A stretch of 64,000 nt of DNA from Pseudomonadota bacterium (GCA_021785515.1 JAJYEX010000002.1:93328-157327), one strand, 5' to 3'. Positions 5,810-42,009 are shown, counted from the first letter of the stretch. Made by a program: numbers and translations. Notes: a model not told the origin generated them from the sequence alone.

Positions 5810-7444
5810 TCAGTAGATCCTGCGGTCCTGCTCCGGACCGCGAACCCCTTGGGGGATGCGATATCCCTCGCGGAAGATCCGGTAATCGATATCCGGAAAC
5901 GCGTTGTCGCGATTGGCCACTTCACGCAGATAATGTTCGTCGACCCGCAGCCGTTCGGTCATGTCGCCCAGGCGATGGAAGCGGTGGATATGGGTCTTGA
6001 AGCGGCGGACAGCGTAGTCCACGGTGGTGCCGCTTTTCATGATGAAGGCCCAGTCGCTGGCCTGCGCCAGGAGCAGTTCGCGGGCAGCCTGGTCCAGAGC
6101 CGCGCGGGTCGCGCCGGCGCAATCCGGAAAGCGGCTTTGCAATGCGACCATGCGTTCCAGTGCCCCGTGCAGGTGGGGATAAATCCAGTCATTGGAGCCG
6201 TTCAGCCAGACCTCGTGGAACCCGCCCGCACCCCAGCTCGATTCCGCCGGCGAGGCGGTCTGCAGCCGGTCACCGTGATCGTCGAGATAACGGGCGGCGG
6301 TGATGGTCTGGATCCCGTCCTGCCCGCGGTCGATGGCACGCAGCAGGAATTCGATCCATTGCGGACCCTCGAACCACCAGTGTCCGAACAGTTCCGCGTC
6401 GTAGGCTGCGACCATGACCGGCGGCGCATTGCAGGAGGGCGCCAGGCGCTCCACCTGCCGGCGCCGTTGCTGCAGGAAGTGGCCGGCGTGTTGTGCGGCC
6501 CGGGCGCGGGCCCAGGCCGGATGATACAGCTCCTTCCACGGCCCGTCGCCAGTGACACGGTGGTATTTGAGGCCGGTGAATCCACGGATGCCGGCGTGCC
6601 GTAACGGCAGCATGTACGGCGCATCGACGTCGAAGCCGGCGTCCCGGTAGAAGTCGCGATACAGGAAATCACCGGGGTACCCTGTGGCGGCCGACCACAC
6701 CTGCATGGACGATTCGAAATCGCGGCCAAACACGGCCGGTCCGGCTGGTGTGCGCAGCGGACGGTGCACGCCGTGTCGCGGCCGCGGCTCGGCATTCAAA
6801 ATTCCGTGCGATTCCACAAAGAAGTGATCGAACCCGAAGTCGCGCAGGACCTGGTCGAATCCGGGCAGATAGCCGCATTCCGGCAGCCAGATGCCCCTGG
6901 GGCTGCATCCGAAAATGCGCTTGTGGGTATGTACCGCCATGGCCAGCTGGGCGTGCAGCCCCTGCGGCTGGGCGGCGAGCAGTGGCAGGTAGCCATGGGT
7001 GGCGGCGCTCGTCAGGATCTCCAGATGACCGGATTCCATCAGGCGGCGGAAGGCCCACGCCAGGTTGGGTTCTGCCGCGAACCGTTCCCTCAGCTGCGCG
7101 TAGCGGCGGGCGTAGAATGTAACCAGACTGCGCAATCGTCGATCCGTGCGCGCCCGGGCACGTTCGCCGGCGAGTGCGTGCAGGCGTTCATCAAGGTAGC
7201 GCAGGTACCGACCCTGGAGCAGCGGGTCGGCGAGCATCAGCAGCAGCGTGGGCGAGAGCGACAGCGTGACGCGATAGGCGACGCCGTTGTCCGCCAGACC
7301 CTCGAACACCTCGAGCAGCGGCAGATAGGTCTCGGTGATCGCTTCGAACAGCCAGTCTTCCTCGAGGAAGCGATCATGCTCCGGATGCCTGACAAACGGC
7401 AGGTGGGCGTGCAGAACCAGCGCGAGGAAGCCTTGTGGGCGCAA
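5810..7444 (-). CDS. GH57-family 1,4-alpha-glucan branching enzyme (DUF1957 type)
   Basis: LALVLHAHLPFVRHPE..EEDWLFEAITETYLPLL is the GH57 branching-enzyme N-terminus. Start uncertain: ATG 7609 would overlap the upstream gene by 155 nt. In-frame TTG at 7444 gives MRPQGFLALVLHAHLPF, 11 nt after the upstream stop. Confidence 0.85.
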   Translation of the reverse strand: MRPQGFLALVLHAHLPFVRHPEHDRFLEEDWLFEAITETYLPLLEVFEGLADNGVAYRVTLSLSPTLLLMLADPLLQGRYLRYLDERLHALAGERARARTDRRLRSLVTFYARRYAQLRERFAAEPNLAWAFRRLMESGHLEILTSAATHGYLPLLAAQPQGLHAQLAMAVHTHKRIFGCSPRGIWLPECGYLPGFDQVLRDFGFDHFFVESHGILNAEPRPRHGVHRPLRTPAGPAVFGRDFESSMQVWSAATGYPGDFLYRDFYRDAGFDVDAPYMLPLRHAGIRGFTGLKYHRVTGDGPWKELYHPAWARARAAQHAGHFLQQRRRQVERLAPSCNAPPVMVAAYDAELFGHWWFEGPQWIEFLLRAIDRGQDGIQTITAARYLDDHGDRLQTASPAESSWGAGGFHEVWLNGSNDWIYPHLHGALERMVALQSRFPDCAGATRAALDQAARELLLAQASDWAFIMKSGTTVDYAVRRFKTHIHRFHRLGDMTERLRVDEHYLREVANRDNAFPDIDYRIFREGYRIPQGVRGPEQDRRIY

Positions 7445-7454
7445 GTTCTGCGGG

Positions 7455-8309
7455 TCAGCGGCTGCTGACGGAAGCCGACCAGACCAGGCGCTTTCCCTCG
7501 CGATGGCCACCGGTGCGTGCGTACATGCGCCCAAACTCCGCGTCGCTGATCCACCAGTGTGTGTCGGTCTGCTCCGAGGCATGCAGCGACGGCAGGCGCG
7601 CGATGCCATGGTCTATGGCGGTAATGAAGCTGTGGTCCGCCCCATAGTAACCGAGCTGGGCATACAGCTGGGTCTCAGTCGCCAGATCACCCACATGAAA
7701 ATACCAGCGCCCGCTATCGCTTGGCAGCGGGATCTCGTCCAGCACCTCGAGTACGCGGTTGTGGATGGAACACAGCCGGATACGCAAGTCAGGCTGGCGC
7801 CGAAGCGTGCCGGGTTCGAGGGCCCAGTAGCCGTGCAGGATTCCGGGCTTCTGCGGCAGCAGCCCGAGCAGCGCATCGGGAAGCGGGGGCAGCGAGTCGA
7901 TATCCTCGTCCAGGTCGGCCGCGACAAAAGGTACGGGTAGTTCCAGGCCTGCCGGTATCAGCATCGATTCCGGCTTGATCCGCAGCTTCCGGGCGGTGCG
8001 ACCGGCCGACGCAGTCCGCTTTCGAGCCGGCCTGACGCCAGCAGCGGCAGGTTTTGCAACCCGCGCGCGCTTGCGGCTCTTGGTGCGTGCCTTGGGTGTC
8101 GCCGATTTGACGCGCTTCTGCGGACGAGCGGATTTCTGTCCCAGTTTGCGCTTCGCCTGGCTGCCCGTTGCCGTGGATCGGCGCTTCGCCGGTTCACGAA
8201 CCGGGCGCGCGAGCAGGCGTAACAGTTCGCTACGACTCATCCGCGAATAACCGCGACGCCCCTGCTTGCGGGCCATCGCGCGCAGCTGCTTCACCGTTTT
8301 GTCATGCAT
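7455..8309 (-). CDS. Rho_N-like / DUF4912 domain protein associated with GH57 glycogen clusters
   Basis: N-terminus VKQLRAMARKQGRRGYSRMSRSELLRLL resembles the Rho termination factor N-terminal (SAP-like) motif. A Lys/Arg-rich linker follows. The C-terminal GILHGYWALEP..RIRL region is DUF4912-like. Confidence 0.7.
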   Translation of the reverse strand: MHDKTVKQLRAMARKQGRRGYSRMSRSELLRLLARPVREPAKRRSTATGSQAKRKLGQKSARPQKRVKSATPKARTKSRKRARVAKPAAAGVRPARKRTASAGRTARKLRIKPESMLIPAGLELPVPFVAADLDEDIDSLPPLPDALLGLLPQKPGILHGYWALEPGTLRRQPDLRIRLCSIHNRVLEVLDEIPLPSDSGRWYFHVGDLATETQLYAQLGYYGADHSFITAIDHGIARLPSLHASEQTDTHWWISDAEFGRMYARTGGHREGKRLVWSASVSSR

Positions 8310-17854: not shown

Positions 17855-17941
17855 TGGTACCGAGGGTCGGAATCGAACCGACACGGTGTCACCACCACCG
17901 GATTTTGAGTCCGGCGCGTCTACCAGTTCCGCCACCCCGGC
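17855..17941 (-). tRNA. tRNA-Leu (anticodon CAA)
   Basis: Reverse complement reads GCCGGGGTGGCGGAACTGGTAGACGCGCCGGACTCAAAATCCGG...long variable arm...GGTTCGATTCCGACCCTCGGTACCA; cloverleaf folds by eye, CCA encoded. Confidence 0.9.
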
Positions 17942-23973: not shown

Positions 23974-25239
23974 ATGTTTACGAAAGACCTGAAAATCGCC
24001 GGTTTCGACCGGGAACTGTGGCAGGCCATGCAGGACGAACGCCGCCGGCAGGAGGATCATATCGAGCTGATCGCCTCCGAGAATTACGCCAGTCCGCGGG
24101 TACTGGAAGCCCAGGGCTCGGTGCTCACGAACAAGTATGCCGAGGGTTATCCCGGCAAGCGCTACTACGGTGGCTGCGAGTACGTGGACGTTGCCGAACG
24201 CCTCGCGATCGAGCGGGCCAAGCAACTGTTCGGAGCCGCCTACGCGAATGTACAGCCGCATTCCGGGTCGCAGGCGAATGCGGCGGTCTACATGGCGCTG
24301 TTGCAGCCAGGCGACACCATTCTCGGCATGAGCCTGGCCCACGGAGGCCATCTTACCCACGGCGCCAAGGTCAATTTCTCCGGCAAGATCTATAACGCAG
24401 TGCAGTATGGCCTCGATGCCGCAACCGGGGAGATCGACTATGGGCAGGTGGAGCGGCTGGCGCATGAGCACAAGCCCAAGATGGTGGTGGCCGGTTTCAG
24501 CGCGTATTCGCGGGTGGTCGACTGGCAGCGTTTCCGGAACATTGCCGACGCGGTCGGCGCATACCTGTTCGTCGACATGGCGCATCCCGCCGGTTTGATC
24601 GCCGCCGGCCTCTATCCCAATCCGGTGCCGGTGGCCGACGTCACGACGTCGACGACCCACAAGACCCTGCGGGGACCGCGCGGCGGGCTGATTCTGGCAC
24701 GCGCCAATCCGGACATCGAGAAAAGGCTTAATTCCGTGGTGTTTCCCGGGACCCAGGGTGGACCGCTGATGCATGTGATCGCTGCCAAGGCCATCGCTTT
24801 TAAGGAGGCGCTTGAGCCGGGCTTCAAGCAGTATCAGCAGCAGGTGCTGGAGAATGCGCGGACCATGGCGGGGGTCATGCAGCAGCGCGGCTACCGGATC
24901 GTCTCCGGCGGCACCGACGACCACCTGTTTCTGGTGGACCTGGTGGCGATGGCCATTACTGGCAAGGATGCGGAGGCGGCGCTCGGGGAGGCGCACATCA
25001 CGGTGAACAAGAACGCGGTGCCGAACGATCCGCAGTCTCCGTTCGTGACCAGTGGCATCCGTATCGGCACTCCGGCGGTCACGACCCGGGGGTTTGGCGC
25101 GCGGGAGGTGGCATCAGTGGGTGGATGGATATGCGATATCCTCTCTGACCTGCAGAATCAGAGTGTGCGTGCCAGGGTTCGGGCTGACGTCGAGGCCCTG
25201 TGCGCGCGGTTCCCTGTGTATGAATCCGTTCCCTGCTAG
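23974..25239 (+). CDS. glyA: serine hydroxymethyltransferase
   Basis: [35 protein letters not shown] (PLP Lys) motifs. Confidence 0.95.
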
Positions 25240-25312: not shown

Positions 25313-25876
25313 ATGCGTTGCCCTTTCTGTTTCGCGGACGAGACCCGGGTAATCGACTCCCGCCTGGCTGATGACGGCGATTCAGTGCGCCGCCGGCGCG
25401 AATGTGAGGTTTGTTCCGAGCGGTTTACCACCTTCGAACGCGCTGAGTTGCGGCTACCTCAGGTAATCAAGTCAGACAGCCGGCGCGAGCTTTTCAGCGA
25501 GGACAAGCTGCGCGGTGGCATGACCCGGGCGCTGGAAAAGCGTCCCGTCGACGCTGAGGCCGTGGAGAAAGCGGTCGGGCGCATACGGCACAAGCTGCTG
25601 GCTGGTGGCGACCGGGAAGTCCGGTCGCGCGATATCGGCGAATGGGTCATGGAAGAACTCAAGGACCTGGACCCGGTCGCCTACGTGCGGTTTGCGTCGG
25701 TGTACCGCAGCTTCCAAGACCTTAACGCTTTCCGTGAAGAGGTCCAGCGGCTGCAGAACGAGCCCACCGGAGAGAGCCGGCGCAAGCAGCTGAAACTCAT
25801 TCCCGACGGTGATTCCCCGGAGGGCAGTCCCGGGGATGTACCACGGCGCCCAGGTACCGGCGGCAGCCGCAGATGA
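25313..25876 (+). CDS. nrdR: transcriptional repressor NrdR
   Basis: MRCPFC....RVIDSR......RRRRECE.C..RFTTFE zinc ribbon plus ATP-cone; unusually long Pro/Gly-rich C-terminal tail. Confidence 0.92.
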
Positions 25877-26991
25877 GCACCGCAGTCGACGATGTACGGG
25901 CCATGGCGCGTGCACTGCAGATTGCAGAACAGGGCCTCTATACCACGGATCCGAACCCGCGTGTCGGGTGCGTGATCGTCAAGGATGGGCAGTGTGTCGC
26001 CGAGGGCTGGCACGAGCGCGCCGGCGAGGCCCATGCCGAACGGCGCGCCCTGCAGGCGGCGGGCGGGGCGGCACGCGGGGCCACGGTCTACGTGACACTT
26101 GAGCCCTGCTGCCATCACGGGCGCACCCCGCCCTGTACCGATGCCCTGGTCGCTGCCGGGGTGGCCAGGGTGGTTGTGGCCATGCCGGATCCCAATCCAC
26201 TGGTTGCCGGGGGCGGTCTGGAACTGCTGCGGCGCGCCGGAATCGCGGTGGAAGTCGGACTGATGCGAGCCCAGGCCGAGGCCTTGAACCCCGGCTTTAT
26301 CCGGCGGATGCAGGACGGGCGCCCTTTTGTGCGCATCAAGATTGCAGCCAGCCTGGACGGGCGTACTGCCATGGCCAGCGGCGAGAGCAAGTGGATCACC
26401 GGCGCGGCCGCGCGTGCTGATGTGCAGAGATGGCGGGCACGCAGTTCCGCGATTCTGACCGGTATCGGGACGGTACAGGCGGACGATCCATCATTGACGG
26501 TACGCACCATGGCCACTGGACGTCAGCCGCTTAGAGTGGTGGTTGATTCCGGCCTGCGCATCGCAGTCACAGCGAGGGTACTTGCGCCGCCAGGTTCGGC
26601 GCTGCTTGTCGCTGCCAGTGAGGATGCGGACCGGGCCAGCCGACTGCGCGCGGCCGGGGCGCAGGTGCTGTGCCTGCCAAATCCGGAAGGCAGGGTGGAC
26701 CTGGCAGCGCTCATGCGCGACCTTGCGGGGCGCGGAATGAACGAGGTCCTGGTCGAGGCCGGCACCACCCTGTGCGGGGCCCTGCTGGCGGCCGGCCTGG
26801 CGGACGAACTCGTGATCTATTTTGCGCCGCATCTGATGGGCGCGCAGGCCCGTGGCATGTTTGCCGTGCCAGGACTGGAACGCATGCAGGAACGGGTGGC
26901 GCTGGAGGTGCGTGACGTGCGTGCGGTTGGTGCCGACTGGCGGGTGGTGGCAAGAGTGGGTGCCGGCGGATCGACGGATGCGCCGGGCTGA
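25873..26991 (+). CDS. ribD: bifunctional riboflavin biosynthesis deaminase/reductase
   Basis: ATGA overlap with nrdR; HAE..AL and TLEPC.H.GRTPPC deaminase motifs plus C-terminal reductase domain. Confidence 0.92.
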
Positions 26992-27006: not shown

Positions 27007-27672
27007 GTGTTTACGGGCATTATCGAGGCGGTAGGCAGCATCGCGCGGGCGGAGACGATAGGCGCAGACCTGCGGCTTCGGGTTGATGCCGGCGCGCTCG
27101 ATCTTTCCGACGTGCGCATCGGCGACAGCATTGCAGTGAGTGGCGTATGTCTGACTGTGGTGGAGTGTTCCGCCGCCGGATTTGTTGCGGATGTATCGCG
27201 CGAGACCCTGGACCATACGACTCTGTCGGGATTGCGTCCCGGAGCGCGCGTCAACCTCGAAAAGGCGCTGGCAGTGGGTGCACGTCTGGGCGGACATCTG
27301 GTGAGCGGCCACGTAGACGGCATGGGTACGGTATGCGCCCGCTGGCACGACGGCAATTCACTGCGCTTGCGGATTGAGGCACCGGTGTCGCTGGTGCGCT
27401 ATATCGCGTCAAAGGGATCGATCTGTGTGGACGGAGTGAGCCTTACCGTCAATGTCGTCGACGGTGTGCGTTTCGAGCTCAACATCGTGCCGCATACGGC
27501 GCAACAGACGACGCTGTCGGCTCTGGACGAGGGGCAGCGGGTGAACCTTGAGGTGGACCTGATCGCCCGCTATCTGGAGAGTCTGCTGACGGCCCGTGCG
27601 CCGGACCCGGTTTCGGGGCTGGACCGGGATTTTCTCGCGGCCCACGGTTTTGGATCACTGGACGACCGCTGA
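27007..27672 (+). CDS. ribE: riboflavin synthase (alpha chain)
   Basis: GTG start; MFTGIIE.VG, GDSIAVSGVCLTV and the repeated GSICVDGVSLTV lumazine-binding motifs. Confidence 0.92.
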   Translation: MFTGIIEAVGSIARAETIGADLRLRVDAGALDLSDVRIGDSIAVSGVCLTVVECSAAGFVADVSRETLDHTTLSGLRPGARVNLEKALAVGARLGGHLVSGHVDGMGTVCARWHDGNSLRLRIEAPVSLVRYIASKGSICVDGVSLTVNVVDGVRFELNIVPHTAQQTTLSALDEGQRVNLEVDLIARYLESLLTARAPDPVSGLDRDFLAAHGFGSLDDR

Positions 27673-27697: not shown

Positions 27698-29185
27698 CTA
27701 TTCGCCCCAGGCCCGCGTCAGTACCTCGTATTTCGTGTTGCCACCACCGGCTGGGACCGTCCCCGTCCCACGCGGCTCAGGCTTTGCGGTTCTGCGCATC
27801 GCGCGCGCCAGTCGCGCACGTCGTATCAGGAGGCGCCGTACTGCTCCGTGCTGCAGCGCAAGTGGGTGCTTGGTTGCGGCCGGCGCCGGTTGCGACTGTG
27901 CCTGCAGAATCGGTGCTGCGGGTGGCTGGATAGCCGGGTGGGCAGCGGGCGCGAGGACCACGGGTGCCGGCGGAGCAGTGGGTGTGGCCGGAGCTTCGGG
28001 CCGGACCATGTAGAAAAACCCCGCTACCAACGCAATTGCCGTGATGGGCAGCAGGCTCATCATCGCGATCGCGGCAGGTCGCCGCAGGCGCGCCCGCAGC
28101 GACTGCCCCGTAAACGGCCCGGATGCATCCTGGGTGCGTCTGCCGAATTTGGAACGGTCTGCTTCCACGTAATGTGTCAGCAGCGCGCGGTCCTTGTCTT
28201 TTCTGATGGCTTTCAGGCGCCGATATGCGCGCACGTGAATCATGCCGAGCTTAATGAGGGCGCTGCGGAATTCGTGTGCATTCTGGAAGCGTTTGTCGGG
28301 ATTCTTGGAGATGGCCTTCAAAATTACCAGTTCCAGCTCCAGGGGGATGTCAGGCTGCAGCTTGGCGGGGCTGGGCGGCTGTTCGTGCAGGTGTGCATCC
28401 ATGTATTCGTAGTCGCTCTGTTTCACGAAGGGCAGCCGTCCGGTGACTGCTTCGAACAGCGTGATGCCCAGGGTGTAGATGTCCGAGCGAAAATCCGCCT
28501 CCTTGCCTGTAACCTGCTCCGGAGAAACATACATGAGCGTGCCGATCATCGAGCCGCTCTCGGTGACTTCCTTGTTGTCGAGTATCTTGGCGACACCAAA
28601 GTCCATGAGCTTGATCTCATGGCCGTTGGTAATGAAGATGTTGCTCGGTTTGAGGTCACGGTGGACGATACCGAGTCGATGGGCACGCTCGACTCCGAGC
28701 AGCGCTTGCTCGAACACCCACACCGTGGTTGCGACCGACAGGCGGCCGGCGTTATGCAGCCGCTGGGCAAGGGTCTGTCCCTCGATGTATTCCATGACGA
28801 GCACGAGACTGCCGGACAGTTCGAACAGCGAATGCAGGGTGACGACGTTGGGGCCGTTGAGTCGTGCCTGCGCCTGCGCCTCGATACGGAATCTCTGCAG
28901 GAACTCCTGGTTGCGGAACAGGTGCGGGGACAGCACCTTGAGTGCGACCGTGCGGTCGAGGGTGGTGTCATGCGCCTTGTACACCACGCCCATGCCGCCT
29001 TCGCCGAGCTTGCTGACGATGAGGTAGTTCCCCACCGTCTTGCCGGCTTCGATGGTATCGAGCAGGGTCTGTGGCGGGCTGCTGTGCCCGGAGCCTGCTC
29101 CCAAGATCGCGGTTTTGGCGAAGCTGGCCGCGGGCTGCTGTTTCGTAGCACCCGGCCGGCCACGCACCAATCGCAGATCGGACAT
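27698..29185 (-). CDS. Hanks-type Ser/Thr protein kinase, single TM helix, Pro/Ala-rich extracytoplasmic tail (STK1)
   Basis: GEGGMGVVYKA, VALKVL, HRDLKPSNIF, DFGVAK, SPEQ motifs. TM segment AAIAMMSLLPITAIALVAGFFYMV. Tail ends KYEVLTRAWGE. Stop lies 26 nt from the ribE stop on the opposite strand. Confidence 0.88.
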   Translation of the reverse strand: MSDLRLVRGRPGATKQQPAASFAKTAILGAGSGHSSPPQTLLDTIEAGKTVGNYLIVSKLGEGGMGVVYKAHDTTLDRTVALKVLSPHLFRNQEFLQRFRIEAQAQARLNGPNVVTLHSLFELSGSLVLVMEYIEGQTLAQRLHNAGRLSVATTVWVFEQALLGVERAHRLGIVHRDLKPSNIFITNGHEIKLMDFGVAKILDNKEVTESGSMIGTLMYVSPEQVTGKEADFRSDIYTLGITLFEAVTGRLPFVKQSDYEYMDAHLHEQPPSPAKLQPDIPLELELVILKAISKNPDKRFQNAHEFRSALIKLGMIHVRAYRRLKAIRKDKDRALLTHYVEADRSKFGRRTQDASGPFTGQSLRARLRRPAAIAMMSLLPITAIALVAGFFYMVRPEAPATPTAPPAPVVLAPAAHPAIQPPAAPILQAQSQPAPAATKHPLALQHGAVRRLLIRRARLARAMRRTAKPEPRGTGTVPAGGGNTKYEVLTRAWGE

Positions 29186-29368
29186 GACTTAAATGCACCC
29201 CTCGGTCGATGACGGCGATGACTTCTTATATGACTTGATCTTACCTCAGATCCGGTGCAAGAGATGGGCCGAACAGGATGGAAGGATCGGCCAGTCAGAT
29301 AAACGGATATTACGCTTGATCAATGACTTGGCGCTGTACCGTCTGTCGCCCAGTCCCCGTCCCGCCGC

Positions 29369-29968
29369 TTACCGTCTGCTAGAGGGTGTTGCGGTCGCCC
29401 CGGAGTGGCGCGGTTCGATGGTGAAGGTCACCTCGGCCCGCGCCAGGCGCACGGAGCGGTCGTAGCCACGGCGGTGAAAGAAGAGTTTGCTGACGATGAG
29501 ATAGTTTCCCGCGGGTGCGCCCGGTGGGATGGGCAGCAGGGTGGTCGCCGTATAGAAACCGCTTGCGCGCAGGTTCTGACCTAGAGACTCGCTGTGGGAG
29601 GCGATCAGGGTTCCGTCCTGAGCGTAGAATTCGCGCGTTTCCGTGAATGTCAGATCAGCGTACGGATCACGGCGCAGGTACAGCTCCTTGTGAATCTTGA
29701 GATATTCGCAGGGGCGGATCTCGTCGCGGTTGACGTTGACCCGGTACACCGTCGCCTGCGCTAGCATGCCACGGGGCAGGGGACCGAAAGCCAGAAACGG
29801 ACTGGCGCGATGATAGTGGGTCGCAAGATCGATCCGGCCGGATTCCGCCGCCTGGACCTGACACTCGTTTGGCGGGGTGGTGGCGCATCCGGACAGTAAC
29901 GCAAGGATCAGGCTGACGAGCAGCGCCGGCGCTGCGGACCGGCGGATCACGGCCGTACGGATGGTCAT
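29369..29968 (-). CDS. predicted lipoprotein, unknown family
   Basis: Signal peptide ending in lipobox LLSGC; 199 aa; lies between the two kinase genes on the same strand; no family recognised by eye. Confidence 0.65.
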   Translation of the reverse strand: MTIRTAVIRRSAAPALLVSLILALLSGCATTPPNECQVQAAESGRIDLATHYHRASPFLAFGPLPRGMLAQATVYRVNVNRDEIRPCEYLKIHKELYLRRDPYADLTFTETREFYAQDGTLIASHSESLGQNLRASGFYTATTLLPIPPGAPAGNYLIVSKLFFHRRGYDRSVRLARAEVTFTIEPRHSGATATPSSRR

Positions 29969-30022
29969 TTGGGGTTCCCTGTCTGGGTGACGCCGGTACT
30001 CTACCTTGGGGGCCCGCCGATG

Positions 30023-31423
30023 TCAGCTCCCACCCCAGGCCTGCCGCAGGACGTTATATTTCGAGGGCAATCGCGCCGACCGGATGGCTGGGGGCATACT
30101 GTGGACCTGGGCAGCGGCCGCCGTGTCGGAAGGCGCGGGGCCAGGGACCACCGTCTTGATCGGCGCTGCCGCGTGCGCGGGGACCGACACTTCCGCAGGA
30201 GGTTGCGGTCGGCGAGTTGCCGGGATGAAGTCCAGGCGCGGGACTAGGCCAAGATGCAGGGCCAGCGCCAGAATGGTCGTCAGCAGCAGCAGCTCAAACC
30301 CCCATGTGTTCCAGAGTCGGCGCAGTGGCGCACGGCCATGCGGCAGCCATGGCGTTTTCGTTACCTGCGGGCGACCGGATGCCGAACCGGTGGACGTGGG
30401 CATGGGGTCCGGACCTGCCTTGCCGACGCAGGCACGAAGGGTCTTGCGGAACGCGGCGGCGCTCTGGAACCGGCGACCCGGGTCTTTCTCGATCGCCTTG
30501 AGGATGACGGATTCCAGTTCGGGCGGCAGATCGCGCTGAAACGTGCGCGGGCTTGGCGGGTGCTCAAGGACATGAGCATGCATCAGGCCGTAGTCCGTCC
30601 TGCGTTCGAACGGCAGGCGTCCGGTGACGGCTTCGAACAGGCTGACCCCGAGCGTGTACAGGTCCGACCGGAAGTCGGCGTCCCGCCCGTTGATCTGCTC
30701 CGGCGCAATGTAGAGCAGCGTGCCGACCACCGCGCCGCCATGTCCGGGTTCGCGGTGGCCGACGATGTGTGCGATCCCGAAATCCATAAGCTTTACCTCG
30801 CCCCGGCGCGTGATGAAGATGTTGCCGGGCTTGAGGTCGCGATGGATGATCCCCATCGCGTGCGCACTCTCTACACCGCTCAACGCCTGATCGAATACCC
30901 AGACCGCCTCCTTCACGGTAAGGGGACCCTGCTCGCGAAGGCGTTGTCCGAGGGTCTCGCCCTCCACATACTCCATGACCAGCACCAGACCCGCCGGGAT
31001 TTCCAGCATCTGGAACAGGGTGACGACATTGGGTGTGTTCAGGCGCGCCTGCGCCAGCGCCTCCGTGCGGAATCGCTGCAGAAATCCCGAGTCATGAAAC
31101 AAGTGCGGCGGGAGGAGCTTGAGTGCCACGGTACGCTCGAGCGCCGTATCATGGGCCTTGTACACCACACCCATGCCGCCTACCCCCAGCTTGCCGAGGA
31201 TGGTATAGCCTGCAATGTGATCGCCGGCTTCGAGTGAGCCGGCTGCGAGCACCTTCAACGGCACGGCCGGCTCGGTCTGGCCGAATGTGGCGTTGGCGGC
31301 GTCCGGCAGTTGGTCGAGTTTCTTTGATAAATCCACGGTTTTTTGTCTCTCTTGCGGCGGCCTGCAGTCTCCCCGAACCGGCCTCGCATCTCTTCGCTGC
31401 GCGCATTCCTGCGCCATATCCAT
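30023..31423 (-). CDS. Hanks-type Ser/Thr protein kinase, single TM helix, paralog of STK1 (STK2)
   Basis: GVGGMGVVYKA, VALKLL, HRDLKPGNIF, DFGIAH, APEQ motifs. TM segment FELLLLTTILALALHLGLV. Tail ends SKYNVLRQAWGGS. Start codon uncertain (ATG 31423, or a GTG about 29 codons downstream). Confidence 0.85.
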   Translation of the reverse strand: MDMAQECAQRRDARPVRGDCRPPQERQKTVDLSKKLDQLPDAANATFGQTEPAVPLKVLAAGSLEAGDHIAGYTILGKLGVGGMGVVYKAHDTALERTVALKLLPPHLFHDSGFLQRFRTEALAQARLNTPNVVTLFQMLEIPAGLVLVMEYVEGETLGQRLREQGPLTVKEAVWVFDQALSGVESAHAMGIIHRDLKPGNIFITRRGEVKLMDFGIAHIVGHREPGHGGAVVGTLLYIAPEQINGRDADFRSDLYTLGVSLFEAVTGRLPFERRTDYGLMHAHVLEHPPSPRTFQRDLPPELESVILKAIEKDPGRRFQSAAAFRKTLRACVGKAGPDPMPTSTGSASGRPQVTKTPWLPHGRAPLRRLWNTWGFELLLLTTILALALHLGLVPRLDFIPATRRPQPPAEVSVPAHAAAPIKTVVPGPAPSDTAAAAQVHSMPPAIRSARLPSKYNVLRQAWGGS

Positions 31424-31525
31424 ATATAATAGTCGATCCGACGCGGCGGGATATGCGGGCGGACGCCGCGCGGCGACAAGCCGGGTGAAAATAGCGGATA
31501 ATCGTACAATTCAGGCCGAAAAACT

Positions 31526-32683
31526 ATGCCAATCAGTCCTATTGTTGAAATTGTCGACGAACTGCGACGCGGACGCATGGTCATCATTATGGATGACGAG
31601 GACCGCGAGAACGAGGGCGATGTGCTCATCGCCGCTGAACACGTGCGTGCGGAACATGTCAATTTTATGGCGCGCTATGCGCGCGGACTGATCTGCCTTA
31701 CGCTCACTCAGGAGCGGTGCCGGCAGCTGCAGTTACCGCTCATGGTAACTGAAAACGGTTCACGCATGACCACCAACTTCACCGTATCGATCGAGGCGGC
31801 GGAGGGCGTGACCACCGGAATCTCGGCGGGGGATCGCGCAACTACGGTGCGTGCCGCGATCAAGCCGGATGCCGGACCGCGAGACATCGTGCAGCCCGGA
31901 CATATCTTTCCGCTGATGGCCAGACGCGGCGGTGTGCTGGCGCGTGCCGGGCACACCGAGGCGGGCATCGACCTGCCCCGTCTGGCCGGGTTGTCGCCGG
32001 CCAGCGTCATTTGCGAGATCCTGAACGAGGACGGCAGCATGGCGCGGTTGCCGCAGCTCGAGGTATTTGCCGCGACCCACGGCCTGAAAATTGGCACCAT
32101 CGCCGACCTAATACACTACCGCATGGAGAATGAATCGACGGTCGAGCGTGCTGCCGAGTGCCACGTCATGACGGAGTTCGGGGAATTCCGCATGGTGGCG
32201 TACCACGACGAGATCGACGATACGGCCCACGTGGCGCTGGTCAAGGGCAAGATTGTGCGCGACACGCCCACCCTCGTGCGCGTCCACGTTCAGTCGAGCC
32301 TGCTCGACCTGCTTACCGTGACGCACCGCGGGATGTCCTGGACCCTGAGGGCCGCGCTGGAGCGCGTTGCCATGGAAGGTACAGGTGTGGTCGTGGTGCT
32401 CGATCAGGAGGAGTCCCCGGCGGACCTGATCCGCCAGATCCAGCATTTTCATCGCCAGGAACAGGGCATAGAATTGCCGGTCAGGCGTCCGCATCAGGCC
32501 TTGCGTACCTATGGCCTCGGTAGCCAGATCCTTTCCGATCTGGGGGTTGGCAAGATGCGGGTGCTGAGTAACCCGGTCAAGGCTCCTGGGCTGTCTGGTT
32601 TCGGGCTCGAAATCGTCGAGTACATCAGTCCGGCGGAAATTCCGGAAGAAGCTGCCACACCGGCAGCGAAAAGCCTCAATTGA
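31526..32683 (+). CDS. ribB: 3,4-dihydroxy-2-butanone-4-phosphate synthase with degenerate GTP-cyclohydrolase-II-like C-terminal domain (RibBX type)
   Basis: N-terminal domain has [10 protein letters not shown] and HTEA motifs. The C-terminal domain aligns to RibA but reads [13 protein letters not shown] where RibA has VRVHSECLTGD..CDC, so the zinc Cys ligands are absent. Confidence 0.88.
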
Positions 32684-34596: not shown

Positions 34597-34783
34597 ATGA
34601 CCGCTGACGTCCTTTCCGGTCGATCGACTGGAGTCGATATGCCTGAGCAAACGGGGACTTTACGGTCCTGGGGTGGTCTGGCGGCAGGAGCCCGGCTCAG
34701 GACGGACCCGGCAGCATGGCACGTGGGGCATGCTGGCATACTCCCCAATCCGGCCGGGACCACAGCCTCGCCACAGGTGCGCC

Positions 34784-41596: not shown

Positions 41597-41690
41597 GGAG
41601 AGATGGCCGAGCTGGTCGAAGGCGCTCCCCTGCTAAGGGAGTATGGGGTCAAAAGCCCCATCGAGGGTTCGAATCCCTCTCTCTCCGCCA
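41597..41690 (+). tRNA. tRNA-Ser (anticodon GCT)
   Basis: GGAGAGATGGCCGAG...CTGCTAA anticodon loop, long variable arm, GGTTCGAATCC T-loop, TCTCTCCGCCA 3' end. Confidence 0.9.
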
Positions 41691-41932: not shown

Positions 41933-42009
41933 GCGCCCGTAGCTCAGCTGGATAGAGTACCTGGCTACGAACCAGGTGGTCGGGAGTTCGAATCTCTCCG
42001 GGCGCGCCA
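41933..42009 (+). tRNA. tRNA-Arg (anticodon ACG)
   Basis: GCGCCCGTAGCTCAGCTGGATAGAGTACCTGGCTACGAACCAGGTGGTCGGGAGTTCGAATCTCTCCGGGCGCGCCA; standard 77-nt cloverleaf; csrA-tRNA-Ser-tRNA-Arg order as in E. coli (csrA-serV-argV). Confidence 0.93.

Follow-up and report, generated by a model that had tools for sequence, protein, structure and literature searches.

The DNA considered here, 64,000 nucleotides from a Pseudomonadota bacterium (GCA_021785515.1 JAJYEX010000002.1:93328-157327; hereafter the window, with positions counted from its first letter), carries a riboflavin gene cluster into which three genes are set on the opposite strand. Two of them encode single-pass membrane serine/threonine kinases of the Hanks type, STK1 (30023-31423, minus strand; 466 residues from the ATG at 31423) and STK2 (27698-29185, minus strand; 495 residues), and between these lies the gene for a lipoprotein of 199 residues (29369-29968, minus strand) that represents a new, unnamed family. 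The insertion site is bounded on the left by the riboflavin synthase gene ribE (27007-27672, plus strand) and on the right by ribBA (DHBP synthase/GTP cyclohydrolase II; 31526-32683, plus strand), after which ribH, nusB, and thiL follow on the plus strand. The gene order and coordinates given in an initial annotation of this sequence agree with the open reading frame (ORF) map of the window; of the two intervals it reported between cassette and rib genes, the 102 nt on the ribBA side is exact and the 26 nt on the ribE side measures 25 nt. Sequence comparisons argue that the kinase-lipoprotein module is real, conserved, and undescribed, and that what is new in it would be a separately encoded lipoprotein co-sensor and a docking motif on the kinase, both of which are proposed here.

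Against a gathering cutoff of 31.7 bits, the Pfam Pkinase model (PF00069) scores 175 bits for STK2 (E 2e-51) and 170 bits for STK1 (E 9e-50), which places both in the family. The catalytic domain spans residues 73-324 of STK1 (30452-31207, minus strand; GVGGMG, VALK, HRDLKPGN, DFG, APEQ) and residues 56-301 of STK2 (28283-29020, minus strand; GEGGMG, VALK, HRDLKPSN, DFG, SPEQ), with 62% identity between the two. The full Hanks set is thus present in both translations, including the αC glutamate (RFRxEA) in addition to the Gly-loop, VALK lysine, HRDLKP, DFG, and (S/A)PEQ elements that had been pointed out before, and the catalytic-motif columns are invariant in 58 homologues. The domains of STK2 orthologues (K2; those of STK1 are called K1) are 88% identical across genomes whose RibE proteins are only ~65% identical. 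The kinases are probably under purifying selection and, with their catalytic motifs intact, are predicted to be active. A hydropathy scan finds a single transmembrane segment in each, LRRLWNTWGFELLLLTTILALALHLGLV in STK1 (30242-30325, minus strand) and AIAMMSLLPITAIALVAGFFYMV in STK2 (28004-28072, minus strand). An AlphaFold2 (AF2) model of K1 built on a 58-sequence alignment consists of a confident kinase domain, one transmembrane helix (residues 338-361 in 437-residue numbering), a disordered tail, and a short terminal helix. Since positively charged residues precede the transmembrane helix of K1, the tail and its end are predicted to be periplasmic. The numbering reflects the probable true start of STK1, a GTG at 31336 that yields 437 residues; it is preferred because public assemblies use it and it fits homologue lengths of 415-440 residues, and because a TATAAT at ~31425-31430 would otherwise overlap the longer ORF. 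Two further features of STK2 stand apart from this architecture. Its N-terminus (29168-29185), MSDLRL[VLI]RG, is near-invariant in the sub-clade of the window and recurs in no fewer than two of the remoter trio loci, that is, loci with both kinases and the lipoprotein. It may serve in the cytoplasm as a docking or regulatory peptide; the same pattern found no match in several other trio loci. The juxtamembrane stretch IKLGMIHVRAYRRLKAIRKDKDRA of STK2 is also conserved.

It is the tail that sets these kinases apart. From transmembrane helix to C-terminus, K1 proteins have 39-100 residues (median 65) and K2 proteins 86-119 (median 108), of a low-complexity Pro/Ala/Thr composition that befits a tether and not a domain; the C-terminal thirds of STK1 and STK2 have zero Pfam matches, PASTA included. 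The initial annotation, which saw one transmembrane helix followed by a Pro/Ala-rich outside tail with no sensor domain, is upheld by the Pfam result and by the disorder in the model, but the tail is not featureless, since it ends in a conserved motif. In STK1 this is KYNVLRQAWGGS (30026-30061, minus strand; helix 425-433 in the AF2 model), predicted to lie outside the cytoplasm and proposed as a docking helix, and in STK2 it is KYEVLTRAWGE (27701-27733, minus strand), which K2 orthologues conserve. Among the 120 closest STK1 homologues the motif is terminal in 118, with the consensus [RK]-D-[RK]-Y-[DE]-x-L-R-[KQR]-A-W-G-[GSD] and at most one more residue after it. Tyrosine and tryptophan are each found in all 120 of these sequences, leucine in 119, alanine and glycine in 118, and arginine in 117. 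Likewise, the C-terminus reads KY[DEAK]x L[TRK][RK]AWG[GQE] in each of the 25 complete K2 orthologues. In its shorter form, D-[KR]-Y-[DE]-x-L-R-x-A-W-G-G, the motif is predicted to be an amphipathic periplasmic helix of 10-12 residues with which the disordered tether terminates.

The lipoprotein, too, belongs to a family without a name. Its signal peptide and lipobox, MTIRTAVIRRSAAPALLVSLILALLSG-C28 (29885-29968, minus strand), can be read directly as LLSG-C28, in agreement with the clean LLSGC lipobox and the want of a nameable family noted earlier: no Pfam, NCBIfam, or PADLOC model matches the protein. The window's sequence fits the pattern for lipidation (a signal peptide ending in [LVI][ASTVI][GAS]C), as do 62 of the 75 family sequences checked; two more are near-misses of the pattern and the rest are mostly fragments. 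In a 51-sequence alignment the invariant cysteines are the lipid cysteine, C36, and C87, the latter two fitting a periplasmic disulfide, and E110, G119, Y139, G154, and Y156 are also invariant; the conserved blocks read ExREFYAxDGTLIA and LPIPxxAPxGxY. AF2 predicts an all-β sandwich of about eight strands whose core exceeds 90 in the predicted local distance difference test (pLDDT). Foldseek relates this model to generic Ig-like or ML-like sandwiches in the PDB, among them yeast NPC2, the NIS1 effector, RbmA, Wzt carbohydrate-binding domains, RhoGDI/Unc119, and the arrestin N-lobe; the E values are ~1e-5 to 1e-4 and the TM-scores 0.39-0.45 when normalized to the query, 0.5-0.6 when normalized to the target. 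Yeast NPC2 (E 2e-5; TM-score 0.39 by query, 0.51 by target) is also the sole match of a sequence search of the PDB, at a non-significant E of 0.27, and the Pfam ML-domain model does not match. The predicted fold hints at lipid or glycan binding, a hint that is not a family assignment. Given that ML-domain and Ig-like sandwiches such as NPC2, RhoGDI, Unc119, and Wzt share with the lipoprotein a predicted β-sandwich but neither a motif nor a Pfam ML match, the likeness is a generic one and offers a lead on ligand type only. Residue +2 of the mature lipoprotein is A, V, S, G, Q, or N across the family and never D, which by the Escherichia coli +2 rule points to anchoring in the outer membrane, a rule that transfers unreliably to this lineage.

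Searches on a large scale place the module in one lineage and at one site. A word-indexed search of 5.8 billion proteins with the lipoprotein returned 14 clusters, and a profile search over all 1.84 billion cluster representatives returned 69 of these, 56 of them with E <1e-10; the family is a small one. Genomic context came from exact-protein look-ups, from a metagenome scan with a 12-sequence lipoprotein alignment (65 loci), and from look-ups seeded with kinases, and the ORFs of each locus were classified by comparison with the genes of the window. Named carriers of the lipoprotein are metagenome-assembled genomes of Acidiferrobacterales; the homologues of the kinases extend the list to Sulfuricaulis sp. 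and "Candidatus Muproteobacteria". Among 66 distinct lipoprotein loci, all contigs that show flanks have the same layout: read along the strand of the cassette, ribH and ribBA on the opposite strand, then K1, the lipoprotein, and in some genomes K2, then ribE, ribD, nrdR, and glyA again on the opposite strand. Both rib flanks are visible around 20 trios and 16 duos (K1 and lipoprotein), partial contigs are all consistent with the arrangement, and four look-ups from motif-bearing kinase homologues gave it as well. Wherever the upstream flank can be seen, a kinase directly precedes the lipoprotein, and nowhere among the 66 lipoprotein loci and five kinase-seeded loci was the module seen at another genomic site. 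The questions raised at the outset, namely whether the genes travel as a unit and whether ribE and ribBA are neighbors in relatives, are thereby answered: the genes co-occur as trios and duos at a single junction, the lipoprotein does not belong to a characterized family that occurs independently of kinases, and ribE adjoins ribBA elsewhere. A search with RibE, one genome per GTDB species, gave 80 loci, and the cassette was found only in the closest of these (L009; RibE 78% identical); in ~75 other Gammaproteobacteria ribE adjoins ribBA, mostly 10-200 nt apart. Because the layout is uniform within the lineage while the two genes are adjacent outside it, the cassette is best regarded as one ancient, vertically inherited insertion. 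Within the lineage the lipoprotein diverges down to 35% identity and K1 to ~48%, and on these comparisons the insertion predates the divergence of an order-level lineage related to Acidiferrobacterales. That it was no fresh insertion had been proposed already, as had its match in GC content to the core; the cassette has a GC of 0.60-0.66, the same as its flanks.

So constant a position invites the question of whether the module is tied to flavin or cofactor metabolism, such that the kinase tunes riboflavin, flavin mononucleotide (FMN), or thiamin synthesis on a periplasmic cue or phosphorylates a Rib enzyme. In all 66 lipoprotein and five kinase-seeded loci, the solo form included, the kinase sits at the ribE-ribBA junction and is divergent from ribBA, and this held while genes beyond the core were reshuffled (secDF, hypothetical genes, GGDEF or Vgb_lyase genes upstream, pgpA present or absent). 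Moreover, with the operon split by the insertion, ribBA requires a new promoter in the region it shares with K1. This divergent intergenic region (31424-31525, or 31337-31525 with the GTG start) contains the TATAAT at ~31425-31430 and a promoter-like site for ribBA at 31473-31502. A further point on this side is that no FMN riboswitch was found at the Rfam gathering threshold in the window. Set against this is the order glyA-nrdR-ribD-ribE-ribBA-ribH-nusB-thiL, which is so highly conserved in Gammaproteobacteria that inserts tend to stay where they land. The same junction has taken unrelated antisense inserts in other lineages, a patatin-like gene (GSGGARG) and an aldolase/adducin-like gene (L019 8712-10404; L044 984-2489), and it consequently seems to be a place where insertions recur and are tolerated. 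By Pfam, the lipoprotein lacks a flavin-binding domain, and a conserved operator that would join the genes is likewise missing: such a shared element was considered and rejected, the conserved 13-mer upstream of STK2 being unique in the window and not repeated upstream of K1 or ribBA. A metabolic tie is consequently unlikely, and given the stability of the glyA-to-thiL order and the unrelated inserts at the junction, the position within the riboflavin cluster is probably historical.

How the module grew, and where it shrank, can be traced in a neighbor-joining tree of kinase domains, which is without bootstrap support. K1 proteins of duo genomes are basal, and all K2 proteins form one clade beside the K1 proteins of trio genomes. 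From this topology it follows that the ancestral unit was a kinase with a lipoprotein and that K2 arose from one duplication of K1, after which the copy lay downstream of the lipoprotein. Across 20 genomes used for both copies, the mean pairwise identity of the domain is 87.7% for K2 versus 72.5% for K1; measured in this way, K2 became the more constrained copy. A search seeded with a basal K1 protein revealed a sub-clade of five tail-less kinases (P0225 and P0228-P0231; 368-406 residues) that end just after the transmembrane helix. Since this sub-clade is nested inside motif-bearing clades, the tail was lost there and not primitively absent. One of these kinases, P0230, is found at a solo locus (L165; GCA_973479145.1, a 167-kb contig), where a kinase of 370 residues (7001-8113) is the sole gene between ribBA and ribE and lies 40 nt from the latter; no homologue of the lipoprotein was detected within 15 kb by tblastn or with the family hidden Markov model at E up to 10. 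A basal clade (L154-L156 and P0194) shows a different kind of change. Its partner protein (L154 5773-6387; L155 1541-2179; L156 5749-6387) has an ordinary secretion signal (…AISADA or …SSAQA) with no lipobox, and in L154-L156 is probably a soluble periplasmic protein; its kinases have the shortest tails, ~22-27 residues from transmembrane helix to motif, and an altered motif, DKYA[ST][LV][KR]K[LVA]WGN, extended by 2-13 residues. The L154 kinase itself has HQD in place of HRD in its catalytic loop and an 11-residue extension after the motif.

The regulatory DNA of the two kinases differs as well. K1 and the lipoprotein are spaced by 1-66 nt and are probably co-transcribed, whereas K2 is preceded by 110-215 nt of conserved non-coding DNA with invariant blocks. 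In the window this region (29186-29368, minus strand) contains CCAAGTCATTGAT, ATCCGTTTATCTG, TCCTTCCATC, and GGTAAGAT, followed by the ribosome-binding site AGGGGTG. The blocks were read from alignments of 8-10 relatives and are common to relatives whose proteins are only 55-75% identical; frame-breaking indels mark the region as non-coding. An RNA element was considered here and rejected, with a consensus energy of -0.95 kcal/mol and little covariation. Because the invariant blocks lack a signal of RNA structure, transcription of K2 is probably governed by a separate promoter or operator at the DNA level, and the blocks are probably the binding site for a regulator.

Taken together, these observations are most readily accommodated by a lineage-specific envelope signaling module in which the lipoprotein is a co-sensor and the terminal motif of the kinase its docking site, a binding that we infer and a reading to which a probability of about one half is assigned. 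The kinases would be receptor Hanks kinases without a folded sensor, each with its catalytic domain in the cytoplasm, a single membrane-spanning helix, and a Pro/Ala-rich tether that is disordered and extends into the periplasm. The lipoprotein, a putative disulfide-bonded β-sandwich, would supply the missing sensor by binding the C-terminal helix, and ligand binding or the state of the envelope, perceived through the lipoprotein, would alter the clustering or proximity of the kinases and with it their autophosphorylation. In trio genomes, two kinases under separate transcriptional control would read one lipoprotein; that both read the same one is probable given that STK2 kept the motif and gained its own regulatory region. 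The site in the riboflavin cluster is most easily explained by one ancient insertion, at an operon junction that permits it, followed by vertical inheritance. Motif and lipoprotein share one phylogenetic range and are encoded by genes that are always adjacent, they are lost together in L165, and they change together in the basal clade, all of which is what a direct partnership between motif and lipoprotein predicts, although these are correlations within one phylogeny.

Whether the motif instead anchors the tail elsewhere, to peptidoglycan, to the membrane surface, or to some other envelope protein, must be weighed against the same facts. The lipoprotein would in that event be an independent partner, for example a regulator on the substrate side, or merely an envelope protein that is co-expressed. 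The motif is amphipathic, with arginine or lysine flanking the tyrosine and tryptophan as in helices that bind membranes or glycans, and the tails of STK2 contain extra basic stretches such as RRLLIRRARLARAMRR. Against such an anchor stand the disappearance of tail, motif, and lipoprotein together from L165, the identical range and constant adjacency of motif and lipoprotein, and the basal clade, where a non-lipoprotein signal coincides with a change in the motif (alanine to leucine or valine, plus the C-terminal extension). Such anchoring, the chief alternative to docking, is rather unlikely. Docking on the lipoprotein, for its part, has several points to contend with. The motif helix is modeled in K1 with a pLDDT of ~60-65, which is moderate only; the generic Ig-like or ML-like sandwich matched by the lipoprotein allows no ligand to be named from it; and the ~8 kb on either side encode neither a phosphatase or FHA protein nor an obvious substrate. 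The joint loss of tail, motif, and lipoprotein rests on one locus, L165, out of five tail-less kinases, and such a loss would be equally expected if tail and lipoprotein shared a periplasmic function without contact.

A more elaborate version would have the tails cross the periplasm so that their terminal helices latch onto an outer-membrane lipoprotein, the link reporting envelope spacing or lipid state and being coupled through the ribBA control region to flavin and thiamin synthesis. If this were true, the link between tail and lipoprotein would be the Hanks-kinase counterpart of distance sensing by RcsF, but the composite is distinctly improbable. The simpler notion that a long tail serves to reach a lipoprotein in the outer membrane gains partial support from the clade with the non-lipoprotein partner, where the tails are shortest; it was set aside in view of L147, which combines a lipobox-bearing partner with a kinase tail of only 39 residues. 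A tether spanning the whole envelope is thus not general, since such a tail is too short for a typical periplasm.

Comparison with known systems sharpens what is unusual about the module. The best NCBIfam model for both kinases is PknB_PASTA (NF033483; E 6e-96 and 3e-92), yet the scores of 323 and 311 bits do not reach its cutoff of 450, and the matches cover only the kinase and juxtamembrane parts. Both proteins fall below the cutoff of every named NCBIfam kinase model, and neither is consequently placed in a characterized orthologous group. As in kinases of the PknB/Stk1/PrkC type, an N-terminal cytoplasmic Hanks domain with all catalytic motifs is joined by a single transmembrane helix to a C-terminal part outside the cytoplasm; unlike them, the proteins described here have no PASTA or other folded extracellular domain, end in a disordered tether with a terminal helix, and belong to a Gram-negative host. 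In Pseudomonas aeruginosa, activation of the Hanks kinase PpkA in the threonine phosphorylation pathway of the H1 type VI secretion system (H1-T6SS) needs the accessory protein TagR and the lipoprotein TagQ, which report the state of the envelope. PpkA/TagR/TagQ is the closest functional analogue in Gram-negatives, in that a membrane Hanks kinase is combined with a lipoprotein component; it differs in that the cassette has no T6SS, Fha, or PppA genes within ~8 kb on either side, its kinases lack a vWA domain, its lipoprotein is without a named family, and two paralogous kinases share one lipoprotein. Pathways of the PpkA type are treated in a literature of their own (e.g., PMC7817224, PMC11881912). 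RcsF, the outer-membrane lipoprotein sensor of the Rcs phosphorelay (PMC12189002), and the NlpE-CpxA pair are alike in concept, given that a small envelope lipoprotein senses on behalf of an inner-membrane kinase system; they signal to histidine kinases or phosphorelays and not to Hanks kinases, and no family relation to them was detected by Pfam. The surmise that two paralogous membrane kinases flanking a lipoprotein had not been described agrees with literature searches, which found no account of this module.

A role in defense, as an anti-phage kinase system related to PD-T4-6 or Mad6, was also considered. Both kinases match the PADLOC models PD-T4-6 and mad6 (lowest E 1e-97), and both are hit by the MADS6 model of NCBIfam, with E values of 1e-46 to 1e-50. 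These matches, however, cover the generic kinase domain only, and the MADS6 scores are 158 and 170 bits against a curated cutoff of 460; the lipoprotein draws no PADLOC match at all. The genes are chromosomal, of core GC, and vertically inherited at a fixed housekeeping locus with no mobile-element or defense-island neighbors. An anti-phage function is extremely improbable.

Outside Actinobacteria and Firmicutes, the majority of bacterial Hanks kinases are not known to respond to any particular input, and in many of them there is no sensor domain. Were docking true, the module would illustrate one solution, in which a small lipoprotein supplies the sensor separately and the kinase itself bears just a short docking peptide on a disordered tether. 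The module is compact (2-3 genes) and strongly conserved in environmentally important sulfur- and iron-oxidizing Gammaproteobacteria, and its natural solo, duo, and trio variants provide built-in controls. Two unnamed families could now be annotated, that of the lipoprotein and that of the kinases with a terminal AWGG motif, and the position in the riboflavin cluster is an easy marker by which the module can be found.

The remaining features of the locus are of lesser consequence. Upstream of ribE on the plus strand, the ORF map gives glyA (23974-25239), nrdR (25313-25876), and ribD (25873-26991). Precomputed Pfam matches for an identical contig include no FHA or PP2C genes within ~8 kb on either side, in keeping with the absence of such partners reported before. 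An ORF of 90 residues (29193-29465, plus strand), antisense to the 3' end of the lipoprotein gene and the adjoining intergenic region and annotated by some public pipelines, is probably spurious; it was rejected because it is called only in near-identical contigs and is broken by frame-shifting indels among relatives. Between the stop of STK1 and the start of the lipoprotein (29969-30025) lie 18 in-frame codons with no second stop, so that one stop read-through could in principle fuse the two proteins, a layout that is probably a coincidence. Farther along, most relatives (L004, L008, L089, L096) have pgpA between thiL and cinA; the gene is absent from that position in the window (34597-34672) and in L092. 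The sole Rfam matches in the window are three tRNA genes, at 17858-17941 on the minus strand and at 41597-41687 and 41933-42006 on the plus strand.

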